Notes under the pieces: generated by a model
Seen by the model: only the letters and a program-made list of their open reading frames with translations
Database searches by the model: none
What the model was told of the DNA's origin: nothing
Origin: a virus
Length of the DNA stretch: 22,740 nt
Reading direction: 5' to 3' (one strand)
Virus record (IMG/VR): IMGVR_UViG_3300030493_000264
Span: 1 to 22,740 of that record
In this document: piece by piece, positions 876-12,457 of the stretch
Position numbering within the stretch: the first letter of the stretch is position 1
How the letters are laid out: each line of letters begins with the position of its first letter
Translations under genes and position numbers: made by a program

Positions 876-920
876 AATGAGGATGCCAGCGAGGAGAATA
901 CCTGGCGGTCTACCAGTGCA

Positions 921-956
921 TATATAGGCTCTTGACTCGTTAGTCATGACTCATGA
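921..956 (+). promoter_or_regulatory. parA promoter: TATA box plus palindromic operator-like site overlapping the start codon
   Basis: TATATA at 921-926, about 27 nt upstream of the ATG at 953. Perfect palindrome AGTCATGACT at 942-951 runs into CATGA containing the ATG. Confidence 0.55.
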
Positions 957-1699
957 AGGTCATCTCCATAGCCAACCAGAAGGGGGGATGTGGCAAAACC
1001 ACAACAGCCGTCAACCTTGCCACCTACCTTGCCCTCAAAGGCAAGCGCGTCCTCCTCTTAGACTTGGATCCCCAGGGCGCCGCGACTGAAGGTGTGGGGG
1101 TAGATAAGTGGAAGCTGGAAAAGAGCATCTATGACGTCATGGTCGATGAGACGCCTATCCAGGAGGTCGTAAAGCCTACTGCGATCCCGGGCCTTGACAT
1201 CGTGCCTTCTAACCTGGACCTCTCAGGGGCTGAGATGGAGCTCGCCAGCACCATGGCCCGGGAGTTTATCCTGAAAGAGAAGCTTGAGCCTCTGGACTAC
1301 GATTATGTGCTCATAGACTCACCACCGTCCTTAGGCCTTCTGACCATCAACTCTCTGACTGCCTGCGATACGCTCATTATTCCCCTGCAGTGCGAGTACT
1401 ACGCTCTTGCTGGCATGTCCATGCTCCTCAAGGTAGTGGAAAGGGTGGCAGTCAAGCTTGGCAACAAGCCACAGCGCTGGGTTCTTCTCACCATGTACGA
1501 TGCACGAACAAGCCTGAGCAAGCAGATAGCTGACCAGGTAAAGGACTACTTCAAAGGTGAGGTATTTCGGACCGTCGTCCCACGTAACGTGAAGCTGGCC
1601 GAGGCTCCCAGTTTTGGCAAGCCCATTCAACTATACGACCCATCTTCTTCTGGGGCTATTGCTTATGAGCAGCTTGCCGAGGAGGTCTTAAATGGCTAA
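953..1699 (+). CDS. parA: ParA/Soj family partitioning ATPase
   Basis: Deviant Walker A ANQKGGCGKTTT, DLDPQG, Walker B region YVLIDSPPSLG, PLQCEYYAL and C-terminal PRNVKLAEAPSFGKP, all characteristic of Soj. Confidence 0.95.
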   Translation: MKVISIANQKGGCGKTTTAVNLATYLALKGKRVLLLDLDPQGAATEGVGVDKWKLEKSIYDVMVDETPIQEVVKPTAIPGLDIVPSNLDLSGAEMELASTMAREFILKEKLEPLDYDYVLIDSPPSLGLLTINSLTACDTLIIPLQCEYYALAGMSMLLKVVERVAVKLGNKPQRWVLLTMYDARTSLSKQIADQVKDYFKGEVFRTVVPRNVKLAEAPSFGKPIQLYDPSSSGAIAYEQLAEEVLNG

Positions 1700-2468
1700 G
1701 AGATCCGTCATGGGCAAGGGGATGGATGCTCTCTTCTCAGATGTCAGGAGTAAAGACTCAGGAGAGACGACTCAGAAGTCAGAAGTAATGAGTCATGACT
1801 CAGGGGCAGAGACTCCTAAGCCAGAGAACCTTAGCCCTGATTCTGGAGTCCTCAGCCAAGAGTCCGCAGTCATGACTACTGAGAGTGAGGCGGCTAGGGA
1901 TGTCAGCAGTCAAGACCCAGTAATACTGAGTCATGACTCAGAAGTAATGAGGCCAGAAAGTGGAGCCCAAACCCTTGAGCCAAGAGTCATTAATCAAGAG
2001 TCTGGAGTAATGACTCATGGGCAAGCGGAGGAGTTGGGGAGCAATACTCATGACTCAGGAGTAATGAGTAATGATTCAGGGGCAAAGAGCTTGACCACAG
2101 AAGTCCTTAGATCTGAGTCAGAAGTCCCTAGTAGGGAATCTGGAGTCATGACTAAGGGGCCAAATGTGGACAAAGAAGTCATTACTCATGAATCTGGAAT
2201 AATGACTCCTGAGTCAGGTCTAATGAGCATTGATCCAGAAGTTCTAAAACAAGCAATCTCAGAAGGTTGCGCTAACCCGCGGATCTCTTTATGGTCGCCA
2301 ATGGTGATGTCAGTACTGCGATATTTACAGCTTACAACGTTTAGGTTCTCTATGAGCCGAGAGGCCAGTACGATCCTAGAGGATGCTTTCAAGGAAAAAT
2401 ACCCAGAGCTATGCAGTGAGATCCAGAAATCGGAGAAGGTACAGAACAGAGATAAGAGGGCTGAGTGA
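1692..2468 (+). CDS. ParA partner protein: ParB-like N-terminal peptide, long low-complexity linker, C-terminal ribbon-helix-helix-like domain
   Basis: Overlaps the parA stop by 8 nt. N-terminal KRSVMGKGMDALF resembles the ParB LGRGLDAL peptide. The linker has SHDS/VMT repeats. C-terminal RISLWS-PMVMSVLRYLQLT-SMSREASTILEDAFKEKY has a strand-helix-helix pattern. Confidence 0.7.
   Translation: MAKRSVMGKGMDALFSDVRSKDSGETTQKSEVMSHDSGAETPKPENLSPDSGVLSQESAVMTTESEAARDVSSQDPVILSHDSEVMRPESGAQTLEPRVINQESGVMTHGQAEELGSNTHDSGVMSNDSGAKSLTTEVLRSESEVPSRESGVMTKGPNVDKEVITHESGIMTPESGLMSIDPEVLKQAISEGCANPRISLWSPMVMSVLRYLQLTTFRFSMSREASTILEDAFKEKYPELCSEIQKSEKVQNRDKRAE
1748..2216. repeat. Intragenic array of palindromic (G)AGTCATGACT(C) sites
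   Basis: Perfect AGTCATGACT at 1791, 1868, 1929 and 2144. A 14-bp palindrome spans 1789-1802 and a 16-bp palindrome CTGAGTCATGACTCAG spans 1926-1941. Variants with 1-2 mismatches at 1749, 2006, 2046, 2067 and 2177. Confidence 0.9.
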
Positions 2469-2761: not shown

Positions 2762-3144
2762 TTGAACGGCGGAAGCAAGTTAATGTGTTCAAGATAGGGA
2801 AGCTCTGGGTCTTCAAGTATTTTTTCGATGACAGGGGGCTCTATGAAGCGCTGCTTGGCTATTATAAGAAAGATACTTACCGGTTCGAGTTCAAATCCAC
2901 GGGCGAGAGAAACAAAGCTCTGAAGCTTCTGGAGTCCGGCGGGATTGATTACTGCCTAGTAGAGGACCTGAAAGGATACCTTGTCTGGCTGGATAAGTCC
3001 AGCAAATATGCCCCAGTTCTGAAGAACTCGGTGGCCTACAAAGAGACGGCCAACGAGAGAATATTCCTCATGAAGGACCTGGCTGCAGTGGAAGAGGCAT
3101 TAAGCTTCGGCGCTAAGATCTATGAGGGCGAGGTCAAATTCTAA
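2740..3144 (+). CDS. Conserved archaeal hypothetical protein
   Basis: Clean 134-aa ORF. The FKYFFDD...YY...YRFEF pattern resembles a conserved euryarchaeal family of unknown function. Confidence 0.7.
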   Translation: MASESDVIERRKQVNVFKIGKLWVFKYFFDDRGLYEALLGYYKKDTYRFEFKSTGERNKALKLLESGGIDYCLVEDLKGYLVWLDKSSKYAPVLKNSVAYKETANERIFLMKDLAAVEEALSFGAKIYEGEVKF

Positions 3145-3404
3145 GGCGGCTTGGACTGGGTCCCTATCTCCGTTTTCCAGTAGGCATTATACCAGAACCT
3201 ATGGCCATCCTCTCTTTGTCTCTGTTCGTAAGCCACCCAGCCCCACCTTATTAGAGATCTCAAGGAGCTGGATAACCGTCTCTCAACCCTGATCCAGTCT
3301 ATGTAGGTGGCAATATCCAGACCCATCGCCTCGGCGATCTCCTTAAGGGACCTTGCCTCCTCCTTGCTATCAGGAAGAGCTGCAAGAATTGCTTCATGGT
3401 TCAT
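3141..3404 (-). CDS. Small winged-helix DNA-binding protein
   Basis: SLKEIAEAMG...RLSSSLRSLIRWGWV...YNAYW has a wHTH pattern. The start is placed at MNHEA (3404) because it forms an ATGA overlap with the upstream gene's stop. Confidence 0.7.
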   Translation of the reverse strand: MNHEAILAALPDSKEEARSLKEIAEAMGLDIATYIDWIRVERRLSSSLRSLIRWGWVAYEQRQREDGHRFWYNAYWKTEIGTQSKPP

Positions 3405-3613
3405 GGGGCGTCCTTGATTCGCCAGAAGCAATGGTATCCATGGCGCCCACCGTAGGCCTTTTCTTTCTGCAATTCCACCAGGTCGAACTTCTCAAGTGCC
3501 AGCAAGGCACGATAGATTGTAGATAGCTTATGCCGAGAGTCAGTTAGCTCCTGGATATCTTCCTGAAGCTCCCTGGTGCTTTTAAGTGCTGACGATTGGC
3601 TCAGTATCTCCAA
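3401..3613 (-). CDS. Small winged-helix DNA-binding protein
   Basis: STRELQEDI...LSTIYRALLALEKFDLVE...FWRI has a wHTH pattern. The frame stays open to 3637, where GCG sits 6 nt from an AGGAGGA SD (3644-3650). Confidence 0.65.
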   Translation of the reverse strand: MEILSQSSALKSTRELQEDIQELTDSRHKLSTIYRALLALEKFDLVELQKEKAYGGRHGYHCFWRIKDAP

Positions 3614-3737: not shown

Positions 3738-3968
3738 TTAGGTGATCGCACGCGGGAATAAGACCCAAGCATCTTTTGGTAACTCAGCTATTCCAAGGAT
3801 TATGCGAATTTGCTCCTTTCGGAGCGCATCCCCCGGATTATCGAGCCAGAAAATATGCCAGAAGGATAGCGAGGCTAGAGGATAGGGATTTGCCATCAAG
3901 GGCGTGCGGAGGATGAGATCCCTACACCTGTATCCGTACTTGCTAAAAATCATCATAGCATATAGCAA
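3738..3968 (-). pseudogene. Fragment of an unidentified gene (copy A of the flanking duplication)
   Basis: Translation ...KYG(12)MANPYPLASLSFWHIFWLDNPGDALRKEQIRIILGIAELPK aligns without gaps to a stop-interrupted frame at 22269-22466. Confidence 0.5.
3774..3864 (+). repeat. Diverged direct repeat, left copy
   Basis: 73/91 nt identical, ungapped, to 22293-22383 by manual alignment; 16 of the 18 differences are transitions. Confidence 0.9.
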
Positions 3969-9251: not shown

Positions 9252-10763
9252 ATGAAGCGGATTAAGAACGTATTTGACCAGGTTGGCAGGACCGGCCTGC
9301 AGCAATACGGCGGCTATATCTATGAGGATTGGTTCCCGCCACTCGTAGGAGCTGCGGGGGCCAGGATCTATAGGATGATGGGCGATAACTCGCCCGTACT
9401 GTATGGCATGCGGTACGCTGTGGATATGATCCTGTCCAAGGTGCCTGTCAAGGTCACCGAAGCCAGCAGCTGCAGGGCTGATAGAGAGGCTAAGGTCTTT
9501 GTGGATTCTCTTTTTAAGGATATGAATCCCTCCTGGCCCGAGACCAAATCCGAAATCTTAACAGATATCGTATTTGGCTGGGCCTACTTCGAGCAACTTT
9601 TCAAGAAGCGTGAAGGCCTTGACCAGGCCGACCCCTTGAGGTACAGTCAGTATGACGACGGCCTTATAGGCTGGAGGTCCTGGGAGATCAGGTCTCAGGA
9701 ATCCCTGGATCACTGGGTATTCGATGAGGAGACAGGCGAGCTTCTGGGCCTGGTCCAGTCCCCGCCTCCAGACTTCCAGCCCCGGTTCGTCCCATATGCC
9801 AAGTCTCTGCTTTTCAGGATTCGATCTTCAAAGGGCAACCCCGAGGGCGAGAGCCTCTTCCGTGGCTGCTACCGGGCCTGGTACAATGTCACCAATGCCG
9901 AGGACATAGAGGGCATAGGCATGGAGCGGGACCTGTGCGGCCTGCCGGTCCTTTACGCTCCTGAGAAAGTGGTCAGTGGCAAGGATGCCAAAAGCCGGTT
10001 AGCAAAACAGAAGTGTATCAAGCTCATCACCGGCCTTAAGAGGGACGAATCCGAGGGCGTCCTTCTACCCTCTACCAGGGACAAATACGGCAACCGCGAG
10101 TACGAGCTGACACTTCTGGCAAGTGCCGGCACCAGGCAGTTCAATATCAACCAGACCATCACCAGGTACACCAGGGATATGGCTATGACCCTCCTGGCTG
10201 ACTTCCTGCTCCTGGGCAGTCAGAAATATGGCTCCAATGCCCTGGCCGTCACCAAGAACGAGCTTTTCCAGGCTGCCCTCCAGACCATCTGCGACCGGAT
10301 GGCGGGCGTTATCAACTCCCAGGCCATACCCCTGGTCATATCCCTGAATCCTTTTGATGAAATAACCGGCCTGCCCAAGGTCTCATTTGGGACTGTTGAG
10401 ACCCCAGACCTGGCCCAGTTAGGCGAGTTCATCAGCAACCTTGCAGGCTCCAAGCAGAACCTGTTCGCTGATGACGTAGAACTTGAGAACTATCTGAGAA
10501 GAGCTGCAGGCCTGCCTTCCGTTCCGCCTAAGCCTACACCTCTACCTACGCCTCTACCTACGCCTCTACCTAAATTTCTACCTGCAGGTGGCCAGGCCCA
10601 GGCTCAGGCCCAACCACGCCCGGAGGCACAGCCCCAGGATGACCAGGCTCAAGCCATGGATGAGCTGCAGAAGGCTTTTGACATGGGCCACTACTCGGCT
10701 AAGGAGATCCAAGACCTGGCCCATCTCCTCATCCGCAGGCCCGAGGGGAGGCTGATAGCTTGA
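9252..10763 (+). CDS. Portal protein (DUF935/Mu gp29-like)
   Basis: Follows TerL. Motifs FGWAYFEQ, GNPEGESLFRGCYRAW, EGIGMERDLCGLPV and LAQLGEFISNL, with a low-complexity C-terminus. Confidence 0.9.
   Translation: MKRIKNVFDQVGRTGLQQYGGYIYEDWFPPLVGAAGARIYRMMGDNSPVLYGMRYAVDMILSKVPVKVTEASSCRADREAKVFVDSLFKDMNPSWPETKSEILTDIVFGWAYFEQLFKKREGLDQADPLRYSQYDDGLIGWRSWEIRSQESLDHWVFDEETGELLGLVQSPPPDFQPRFVPYAKSLLFRIRSSKGNPEGESLFRGCYRAWYNVTNAEDIEGIGMERDLCGLPVLYAPEKVVSGKDAKSRLAKQKCIKLITGLKRDESEGVLLPSTRDKYGNREYELTLLASAGTRQFNINQTITRYTRDMAMTLLADFLLLGSQKYGSNALAVTKNELFQAALQTICDRMAGVINSQAIPLVISLNPFDEITGLPKVSFGTVETPDLAQLGEFISNLAGSKQNLFADDVELENYLRRAAGLPSVPPKPTPLPTPLPTPLPKFLPAGGQAQAQAQPRPEAQPQDDQAQAMDELQKAFDMGHYSAKEIQDLAHLLIRRPEGRLIA
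10533..10583 (+). repeat. 12-bp tandem repeat encoding PTPL x3 in the portal C-terminal linker
   Basis: CCTACACCTCTA, CCTACGCCTCTA, CCTACGCCTCTA, then degenerate CCTAAATTTCTA. Confidence 0.9.
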
Positions 10764-12457
10764 TCTCGGGTGGTAGAAGCGAGGAAGTCAGGAAGTCAAT
10801 CGTCCCCGGCTCTGGCCCAGCTGGTGCTCCCATAGCCTTCATAGCAGCCTCGCCCTCAGAGCTCGAAGGCATAAGGCGTATCCCATTTGTAGGACAGGCG
10901 GGACGTACCTTCAAGGAGCATTACTTAGACCCTCTGGGCCTGACTCGTGACCAGGTCATCCTGGCCCATGTGGTCCCGGAGGTGCTGAAGTCGGACGGGC
11001 GGATAAGAGGCCCGAGCCAGGCCGAGATAGATGCTCACCTGCCATCTCTCCTGAAAGCCCTGGACGATTCAAAGCCCCAGGTCATAATCGCCCTGGGACA
11101 GGTGGCTAAATATGCCCTCGGAGATCGGGCCACCCTGGTACTGCCTCACCCCCTGGCCATAATCTCGAAGGGTGACAGGGGTGAAGTGGCCCGAAAGCTC
11201 AAACAGATCAAGGGCCTGGTCCAAAAAGGGGAGCCGGGCTCAGCCGGGCCCTTTCATCGAATAATAAAGGGCTACTGCACGCTCCACAACTCCAAGGGTG
11301 GGACGTTCGTGGTCAATGCTCCAGGCCTGGACTGCAAGGGCTCTGACAAGTCTTCTCATGTCAGTAGTGCCTCTGGCGGGCCTGGCTCAGACAAACCGAT
11401 TATACCTTCTGGTAGGCCGAGTGTGATAAGACTCTGGCTCAGATCCCACCCTGATGAACAGGCCGTGGTCAGAAGCATAAAAAATGGCGAAGCCGAGGTC
11501 AGACTGGCTGGCAGTGGTGACCTTCTGGGCACATTCTCGACCAAGGATCTGCCTGAGGGCCTGGCTGAAGGTGACCGCCTCTATCCTGTAAGCAGTGGCC
11601 TGATTATAATTAAGCCGAGGTCAGATAGTATCAAGCGACACACTCACGAAGCTTACCACACTCCGGAAGAGAACGCCCTGAATCACGAGCCCAGGCTTGA
11701 AGACGATACCACCTCCTGGCTTGCCAGAGAGATGAGCTCTGATGCTAAAGTTTCAGTTACTCACATAGATCCCCAGACCAAAGAGGCCATCCTGACCTCA
11801 GAGGCCAGGTCCTGGCAGGCCCGGATACCTCTAAACCTCTTGCCCGACCCTCAGGTAGGAGACGTCATTTACGGGGCTTCTGGCAAGCTTAACAATAAGA
11901 GGACTGGAGAATCTACAGATTCGGCACCTCTGATCGACTATATCCTCCATAACACCGAGGCCCCCGGCTACTTCAAGAATCTGATTAAGCCCTATGGAGA
12001 GGGTGGTCCAGACATAAATGCCGTGACTAAGGCCCTTGAAGAACCACGGGTCATAAATATATCTTCTGACATAATGAAGGCTGAAGGCTACGCTACTATT
12101 CTAAAAGCTGATGAAGATAAGCGCATAGTGTGCGGCGTGGTCCTTGAGCCTGGCACCTTCGATCTACAGAGGGATAGGCTCTCCGCCGATGAGATCAGGC
12201 GGTCTGGTGAAGATTACCTAAAGGAATCCAGGATATTCTTTGATAGACACAGGAAGCCTGCCAGAGCTGAACTGGTGAAATTCTGGTTCGCAGAAGACGA
12301 CCAGAAAGTATTGGGCCAGCTCGTTAAGGCCGGTTCGTGGGTGCTCTGCGTTCATGTCTCAGATGATAAGATATGGGACAAAATCAAGCGCGGCGAGTAT
12401 ACTGGATTTAGTGTAGGTGGTAGAGGTGTCCGCATACCCGTCAGGATTGCGGCCTGA
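10760..12457 (+). CDS. Multidomain prohead protease: degenerate family-4 UDG-like domain, two DUF3006-like small beta domains, XkdF-like (S78-type) protease
   Basis: N-terminal PFVGQAG, P..AEI, KPQVIIALGQVA and PHP are UDG-like. LPEGLAEGDRL and LLPDPQVGDVI are DUF3006-like. C-terminal KADEDKRIVCGVVLEP..D..D, H, VKAGSWVL and WDKIKRGEYTGFSVGG are XkdF-like. Confidence 0.8.
   Translation: MISGGRSEEVRKSIVPGSGPAGAPIAFIAASPSELEGIRRIPFVGQAGRTFKEHYLDPLGLTRDQVILAHVVPEVLKSDGRIRGPSQAEIDAHLPSLLKALDDSKPQVIIALGQVAKYALGDRATLVLPHPLAIISKGDRGEVARKLKQIKGLVQKGEPGSAGPFHRIIKGYCTLHNSKGGTFVVNAPGLDCKGSDKSSHVSSASGGPGSDKPIIPSGRPSVIRLWLRSHPDEQAVVRSIKNGEAEVRLAGSGDLLGTFSTKDLPEGLAEGDRLYPVSSGLIIIKPRSDSIKRHTHEAYHTPEENALNHEPRLEDDTTSWLAREMSSDAKVSVTHIDPQTKEAILTSEARSWQARIPLNLLPDPQVGDVIYGASGKLNNKRTGESTDSAPLIDYILHNTEAPGYFKNLIKPYGEGGPDINAVTKALEEPRVINISSDIMKAEGYATILKADEDKRIVCGVVLEPGTFDLQRDRLSADEIRRSGEDYLKESRIFFDRHRKPARAELVKFWFAEDDQKVLGQLVKAGSWVLCVHVSDDKIWDKIKRGEYTGFSVGGRGVRIPVRIAA

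Follow-up and report, generated by a model that had tools for sequence, protein, structure and literature searches.

A segB homologue on a Methanothrix-associated mobile element contains a probable array of SegB binding sites within its own linker-coding DNA

A SegAB-type partition cassette

We analysed the whole of IMG/VR record IMGVR_UViG_3300030493_000264 (22,740 bases; the "window"), which carries an archaeal SegAB-type partition module of a Methanothrix-associated mobile element. The first gene of the module, segA or parA (953–1699, plus strand), encodes a 248-amino-acid Walker-type ParA ATPase of the Soj type (Pfam AAA_31, E = 6e-63). The second, a segB homologue (1692–2468, plus strand; protein P0001), encodes a 258-amino-acid partner, and its first 8 nt are also the last 8 nt of segA. 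Within segB there are three parts: a conserved N-terminal peptide (..K-G-M-D-A-L-F-S..; 1692–1742, plus strand) that is a candidate ATPase-activating tail; an array of 7-nt units, or heptads, in the DNA that encodes a disordered linker (1730–2248, unstranded), which is a candidate centromere (segS); and a C-terminal ribbon-helix-helix (RHH) domain (2223–2468, plus strand), predicted to bind DNA from its alignments to SegB. Upstream of segA are an A/T-rich, TATA-like box (ATATATAGG; 920–928, plus strand), read from the sequence, and four in-phase heptads that overlap the start codon (930–957, unstranded) and form a putative operator, or "site 1." The TATA-like box is probably the segA promoter. 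It lies about 25–33 nt 5' of the ATG, which implies a leaderless or near-leaderless transcript.

The best matches of the segA product in the PDB are to ParA/Soj proteins (E = 1e-61 to 3e-74). SegA from Saccharolobus (Sulfolobus) solfataricus (Sso; 7dut) is a more distant match (7e-17) than the bacterial Soj/ParA structures. By these comparisons, the ATPase is a ParA that resembles bacterial Soj more than it does Sso SegA.

The partner protein (the open reading frame, or ORF, at 1692–2468) had no match in a search of Pfam. It has 51 homologues of 141–230 amino acids, with a conserved N-terminal peptide, a variable middle, and 70 conserved C-terminal residues. A profile of 52 homologues matched S. 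solfataricus SegB (7duv_A, E = 3.5e-11; 7dv2_A, E = 7.8e-10), and hhalign against 15 SegB proteins from the Sulfolobaceae gave a probability of 98.1% (E = 1.1e-13) over the RHH domain. Judged by these profiles, the partner is a homologue of archaeal SegB, an RHH centromere binder, which agrees with the preliminary description of this DNA (made from the letters and a list of ORFs), in which the partner had been likened to RHH adaptors. The hhalign comparison left the N-termini unaligned. Across the homologues, F15 and S16 of the N-terminal peptide are invariant or nearly so, and by analogy with SegB and ParG (PMC8682754), this conserved tail would activate the ATPase. In the AlphaFold2 model (mean pLDDT of 55), only the C-terminal domain is confident; most of the linker has pLDDT values under 50 and is predicted to be disordered.

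The predicted DNA-reading strand, P-R-I-S-L-W-S, comprises residues 196–202 (2277–2297). K52, W56, S57, and S77 are listed as DNA contacts of Sso SegB (PMC12139799). In the hhalign alignment, they correspond to R197, W201, S202, and S222 of the window's protein; Sso K75 and K81 align with S220 and S226. The contact residues are thus partly conserved. Some Methanotrichales homologues (L058, L064, and L074) have two RHH-strand motifs in one frame of 274–326 amino acids, which may be a tandem RHH that forms a DNA-binding unit in a single chain.

In-phase heptads fill the linker and cover the segA start

The preliminary description had centred on a palindromic 10-mer, AGTCATGACT, with one copy between the TATA box and the ATG of parA and about nine copies, four of them perfect, in the next gene. 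In the 22.7-kb record, we found perfect copies at 942, 1791, 1868, 1929, and 2144. This bears out both the promoter copy (942) and the four perfect copies in the gene. The total for the gene had been set too high: besides the four perfect copies, there are three with one mismatch (2006, 2046, and 2177), and the copy proposed at 2067 has two mismatches. There were eight matches in all, versus 1.04 expected, and none of 100 shuffles reached eight. The whole 22,740-base record contains no further perfect copy, as had been stated, and when counted genome-wide, the motif is restricted to the promoter and the segB linker. The long palindromes that had been described are borne out by a perfect inverted pair of 15 nt (1789–1803 and 1926–1940).

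When the DNA is laid out in sevens, these palindromes appear as islands within a 7-nt periodic array whose unit is TCATGA followed by S (G or C). The array has about 69–72 in-phase units. Segmentation gave 69 in-phase heptads, with main blocks at 1737–1883, 1903–2021, 2027–2159, and 2165–2248. On average, these heptads match TCATGAS at 4.74 of 7 positions (versus 2.00 for the background), and 29% of them match at six or more positions (versus 0.5%). The feature first described is therefore real but was drawn too small: its palindromes belong to an array of 69 heptads together with four more at the promoter. Three heptads (21 nt) encode one 7-amino-acid unit, [DE]-S-G-V-M-[ST]-x.

The four promoter heptads (TCTTGAC, TCGTTAG, TCATGAC, and TCATGAA) are in phase and score 6, 5, 7, and 6 out of 7. 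Among them, at 944–956, is a perfect dyad of 13 bp, TCATGA-C-TCATGA, and the second ATG of the dyad is the start codon of the ATPase. With up to two mismatches allowed, this 13-mer occurs 15 times in the window: 12 times in the linker, twice at the promoter, and once elsewhere. The position of the operator corresponds to that of site 1 in the Sulfolobaceae, ..CTCTAGAC, which is immediately before the ATG (PMC8682754). Relatives of the window have 8–10 heptads upstream of segA.

We consider it likely that the linker-coding DNA is an intragenic segS array that is bound by the gene's own product, SegB, with an operator at the start of segA. Both the binding of the heptads by SegB and the role of the array as a centromere are inferences from sequence.

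The periodicity is a property of the DNA, not of the peptide

An array of this kind might instead reflect selection on the peptide repeat or on mRNA structure, with an incidental resemblance to the promoter. Units of the form [DE]SGVM[ST] do recur in the homologues, and the linker RNA folds better than shuffled sequences (z = -5.1). Stable folding is expected because of the palindromes, and scans with Rfam and for tRNAs found nothing. To separate the two levels of selection, we held each protein fixed, drew synonymous codons according to the usage of the flanking genes, and computed the autocorrelation at lags of 7 and 14 nt (2,000 resamples). In all eight of the loci, the 7-nt periodicity of the linker was above every resample (z = 5.7–9.7); for the linker in the window, z was 8.1 and 0 of 2,000 resamples reached the observed value. 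A peptide repeat cannot by itself give rise to a 7-nt sub-period.

Codon choice shows the same signal. The serine codons TCA and AGT account for 96 of 131 serines in linkers but just 32 of 158 in the coding sequences that flank them (p = 5e-20), and GGA (glycine), CGA (arginine), CAT (histidine), ACT (threonine), and GTA and GTC (valine) are also enriched in linkers. The excess over synonymous resampling and the codon skew both support the earlier claim of selection on a DNA motif.

Because 7 is not a multiple of 3, successive heptads fall in different frames. The preliminary description had placed the motif in two reading frames and not in the third, which would contain TGA. This holds in the window (S-H-D-S at 1791 and 1929; V-M-T at 1868 and 2144). 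It also holds for perfect TCATGA across eight loci of the TCATGA type: one of the usable frames has 24 copies and the other 23, and the TGA frame has none but carries 31 variants with one mismatch, TCA[ACG]GA (e.g., TCAGGA or TCACGA). One heptad in three would thus be bent to avoid a stop codon. In a genome of Methanothrix, the protein profile also matched the linker in its other two frames, which contain 5–6 TGA codons.

The peptide itself evolves quickly and is weakly constrained: the ratio of non-synonymous to synonymous rates (dN/dS) is 0.2–0.6 in linkers versus 0.03–0.12 in the flanks. As the peptide changes, orthologues retain the 7-nt pattern and the codons that build heptads, as expected if the DNA motif is what is conserved. 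Given the resampling and the reading of one DNA unit in two frames as different peptides, we rejected the peptide-repeat explanation. Selection on peptide or mRNA structure would also leave unexplained the exact 13-nt identity with the promoter and the covariation with upstream DNA across the family (see below), and we view this explanation as highly improbable.

The linker and the upstream DNA change together in relatives

If the linker and the operator are bound by the same protein, their sequences should match in relatives as well. In 11 loci, the 13-mers of the locus's own type were confined to the DNA before segA and to the segB linker, and no more than one other copy was present in the 4–22 kb of each locus. 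The 200 nt upstream of segA share 24–41 8-mers with the linker of the same locus (control windows had means of 0.6–5.7), and the all-against-all matrix of linkers and upstream regions is block-diagonal.

Among Methanotrichales genomes and metagenomes, we identified at least four specificity groups (TCATGA, TAATTA, TCTAGA, and TTAAGA-type). In one clade, TAATTA-S replaces TCATGA-S both in the upstream array and in the linker. In the SegA phylogeny, the window falls with this TAATTA clade, yet it has TCATGA in both places. Further Methanotrichales lineages have the TCTAGA type, the TTAAGA type (ASTTAAG heptads), or the GAGTCA-n-GACTC type, and L057 and L060 have exactly the TCTAGA type both upstream and in the linker. 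The heptad pattern persists among lineages that share only about 50% identity in SegA. Linkers without a 7-nt periodicity (L058/L074, L063, L072, and L073) served as negative controls, and they share nothing with their upstream DNA. The co-variation of operator and linker heptads across at least four specificity groups supports the view of a self-contained cassette whose linker matches its promoter.

The RHH strand also differs between heptad types. P-K-[IL]-G-V-[WY]-S accompanies TCTAGA (in Sulfolobus, L057, and L060), P-R-I-S-x-[WY]-S accompanies TCATGA and TAATTA heptads, P-K-I-S-L-Y-S accompanies GAGTCAnGACTC, and P-R-I-G-I-Y-S accompanies the TTAAGA-type unit. The residues that differ with the heptad type may be specificity determinants.

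One IMG/VR contig (L020) has nine near-identical tandem units of 42 nt at 3085–3462. Each unit encodes 14 amino acids and contains six TAATTA-type heptads. These repeats match the contig's own upstream array, and they resemble a recent expansion.

Plasmid pMETEV01 of Methanohalobium evestigatum (L053:1233–2758) was considered as a member of the group and rejected, and it was kept as a negative control, since it has a non-heptad linker and an ATPase that is not a ParA. In this plasmid, a SegB-like RHH protein with an ordinary acidic linker lies behind a non-ParA "ATP-binding protein," and there are three AGTATAA heptads upstream.

A possible mechanism, and evidence that weighs against it

In the mechanism that we propose, SegB dimers would bind the heptads at the start codon and repress segAB, and SegB would coat the intragenic array cooperatively to form a partition complex at segS. 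Activation of SegA on the nucleoid by the N-terminal tails of SegB would then separate the copies of the element. Slippage that adds or removes blocks of 21 or 42 nt keeps the frame and would resize the centromere and the linker together, and changes in heptad type may create new incompatibility groups. The intragenic array might additionally act as a roadblock or in titration.

These last roles could also be the only ones. SegB might bind the array purely for regulation: the bound array could be a roadblock to transcription, or it could titrate SegB and in this way set its level or the SegA:SegB ratio. The array is 3' of segA and inside segB, a place at which a roadblock would reduce the amount of SegB compared with SegA, and the 8–10 upstream heptads of the relatives could be the centromere. 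But the window has just four heptads upstream versus about 70 in the gene, and by analogy with omega of pSM19035 (PMC2441792), the large array is a better platform for a partition complex. We think that a purely regulatory role is improbable.

Several observations weigh against the view of the linker as a maintained SegB-bound centromere. First, over short evolutionary distances, synonymous change (dS) proceeds no more slowly in the linker than in the flanks, with values of 0.71 versus 0.46–0.68 for L014/L019, 0.98 versus 0.36–1.03 for L018/L020, and 0.56 versus 0.42–0.43 for L006/L010. Continuous purifying selection on each site is therefore unsupported. Second, some family members lack a heptad linker, so the array is not essential for SegAB function. 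Third, the nine 42-nt copies in L020 imply that slippage alone can build such arrays quickly. Fourth, the AlphaFold2 monomer has helices but no beta strand, and although SegB chains rank first in a Foldseek search, they do so weakly (E ~1); because of this, the case for SegB homology is based on the profile searches. Fifth, the cassette lies outside the direct repeats that bracket an 18-kb virion block (portal at 9252–10763, protease, and capsid), and so may be part of a backbone element instead of the virus itself.

The synonymous-site constraint that the preliminary description had put forward as a check thus gave a mixed result. The short-range comparisons do not show it; only L005/L017 and highly diverged pairs have a lower dS in the linker than in the flanks, and in the diverged pairs linker dS plateaus. 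The array may be kept by turnover (slippage or gene conversion) and by convergence on the motif instead of by site-by-site conservation.

The first three observations above, along with the fast evolution of the linker peptide, also fit an alternative in which the heptads are a non-functional by-product: they would lie in a tolerant linker and be kept operator-like by slippage or gene conversion, with selection only for an open frame. The SegB literature likewise ascribes expansions of the middle region to slipped-strand mispairing (PMC12139799; PMC12284271). However, a by-product would have to persist across lineages with about 50% identity in SegA and to track the operator through at least four changes of specificity, which needs repeated frame-preserving conversion over about 750 bp. 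It would also not account for the plateau of linker dS below the flanks at high divergence. And if the operator is bound, then near-identical sites 750 bp away should be bound too. We regard the by-product explanation as unlikely, if less so than the purely regulatory one.

Overall, we prefer the reading in which SegB binds the array in its own gene, and the partition-cassette interpretation that was first made for this DNA is supported, largely by comparative evidence.

Comparison with known partition systems

The closest parallel is SegAB of Saccharolobus solfataricus and Sulfolobus acidocaldarius (PMC8682754, PMC12284271, PMC12139799, PMC12858884), in which a gene for a ParA-type ATPase is also followed by one for an RHH centromere binder. 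There, SegB has an unstructured N-terminal activating tail and a middle region that varies in length. The sites are alike too: the heptad is a 6-bp palindrome plus S, a site abuts the start of segA, and many sites are intragenic. In S. solfataricus, chromatin immunoprecipitation sequencing and footprints identified the site TCTAGA-S-TCTAGA, with about 84% of its instances inside genes (10.1101/2025.02.07.637068 = PMC12284271). In S. acidocaldarius, segS comprises three 7-bp repeats (PMC12139799). The cassette in the window differs from these in the dense, in-phase packing of its sites within the DNA that codes for SegB's own linker, in its hexamer (TCATGA instead of TCTAGA), in its more Soj-like ATPase, and in its location on mobile-element contigs instead of at a chromosomal locus. 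Also, unlike in the window, the Sulfolobaceae linker shares no k-mers with the upstream site.

Within the Sulfolobaceae, the 14-amino-acid tandem repeats of Metallosphaera SegB have been explained either by slippage at G[A]n tracts or as a beta-helix, which is a prediction (PMC12284271, PMC12139799). Like the repeats in L020, they separate the N-terminal tail from the RHH domain, and their 42-nt unit comprises six heptads. In segB of Metallosphaera tengchongensis (L022:1543–1920) and also in L024 and L025, these 42-nt units have a 7-nt substructure (AGAGTGC AGAGTGG ...). The AGAGT core fits the AGNGTNN unit published for S. acidocaldarius segS, and 8 of the 98 matches to AGNGTNNAGNGT in a 2.2-Mb genome are within segB. 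We nevertheless rejected an extension of our proposal to the Sulfolobaceae: beyond the level of controls, the Metallosphaera linkers share no 7-mers with their upstream site.

A second parallel is the type Ib omega/delta system of pSM19035, in which dimers of the RHH protein omega bind contiguous 7-bp heptads in direct or inverted orientation (PMC2441792; 10.1101/2022.05.29.493902). Its heptad arrays are both operator and parS, and its N-terminal tail activates the ATPase. The sites of omega, however, lie between genes, 5' of promoters, and not in the omega coding sequence, and the likeness drawn here is one of architecture. Systems of type Ib (omega/delta and ParF/ParG) combine a small ParA that lacks an N-terminal helix-turn-helix with an RHH adaptor and with short iterated repeats that are centromere and operator at once. 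In common with them, the window has a short ParA (248 amino acids), an adaptor that is an RHH protein by homology, and heptad iterons at the promoter. Its predicted functions would place it in the type Ib ParA/RHH-ParB class, which is a functional class and not a sequence family.

Centromere sites near or within partition genes have precedents. The repeat arrays parC1 and parC2 of pB171 par2 flank a type Ib operon, and parC2 is intergenic. In Bacillus subtilis, there is a parS site inside spo0J, so a centromere site lies within the gene for its own binder. That parS is one 16-bp site for a helix-turn-helix ParB; unlike the segB linker, it is not a repeat array that dictates a peptide. Our full-text literature searches found no description of a binding-site array in the linker of segB or of any parB-type gene. 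What appears to be new here is the heptad array inside segB's own linker DNA; the partition system itself is of the SegAB, or type Ib-like, kind.

Distribution and gene neighbourhood

Loci related to this segB were found in metagenome-assembled genomes of Methanothrix and in one from Bathyarchaeia, and homologues are present in 25 of 105 Methanotrichales genomes. Wherever the flank is present, a ParA gene lies directly 5' of the segB homologue, and this is also true of most Methanotrichales loci. A search of a phage database found no homologue of the partner protein. Searching viral contigs with the single segB protein gave no loci; the family profile was required.

Downstream of segB is a possible third gene of the operon, an ORF of 98 amino acids (2465–2761) that shares 4 nt with the end of segB and has no Pfam match. 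Directly 5' of segA, 153–875 encodes a staphylococcal-nuclease domain fused to an Ada-type zinc-binding domain, and a similar gene is near segAB in L006. The direct repeats that flank the virion block (3774–3864 and 22293–22383) are 90 nt long and about 80% identical. In the single ORF at 10760–12457, a domain of the uracil-DNA-glycosylase superfamily is combined with an XkdF-type prohead protease domain.

Implications

SegAB has been dissected only recently, and the papers leave the repeat-rich, variable middle of SegB as "function unknown." For one large group, our analysis offers a testable answer: the middle region would be the protein's own array of binding sites. We lean slightly towards a broader proposal, in which the same stretch of about 0.2–0.8 kb is both a SegB site array (segS) and the template for a disordered spacer. 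On this proposal, such dual-coded linkers are widespread in chromosomal contigs and mobile elements of the Methanotrichales, co-evolve with the operator through switches of specificity, are tuned by slippage, and possibly generate incompatibility groups. If true, this would be a clear example from nature of two codes that overlap, with the peptide repeat dictated by a DNA array that acts in cis. The family also supplies its own controls, in the lineages whose linkers are not built of heptads and in the specificity types, of which there are at least four. The cassette is also compact, with promoter and operator, ATPase, adaptor, and centromere in about 1.5 kb, and might be of use in stable vectors for methanogens. 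Finally, it suggests a route by which partition specificity may diversify among the co-resident elements of Methanothrix, a globally important producer of methane.

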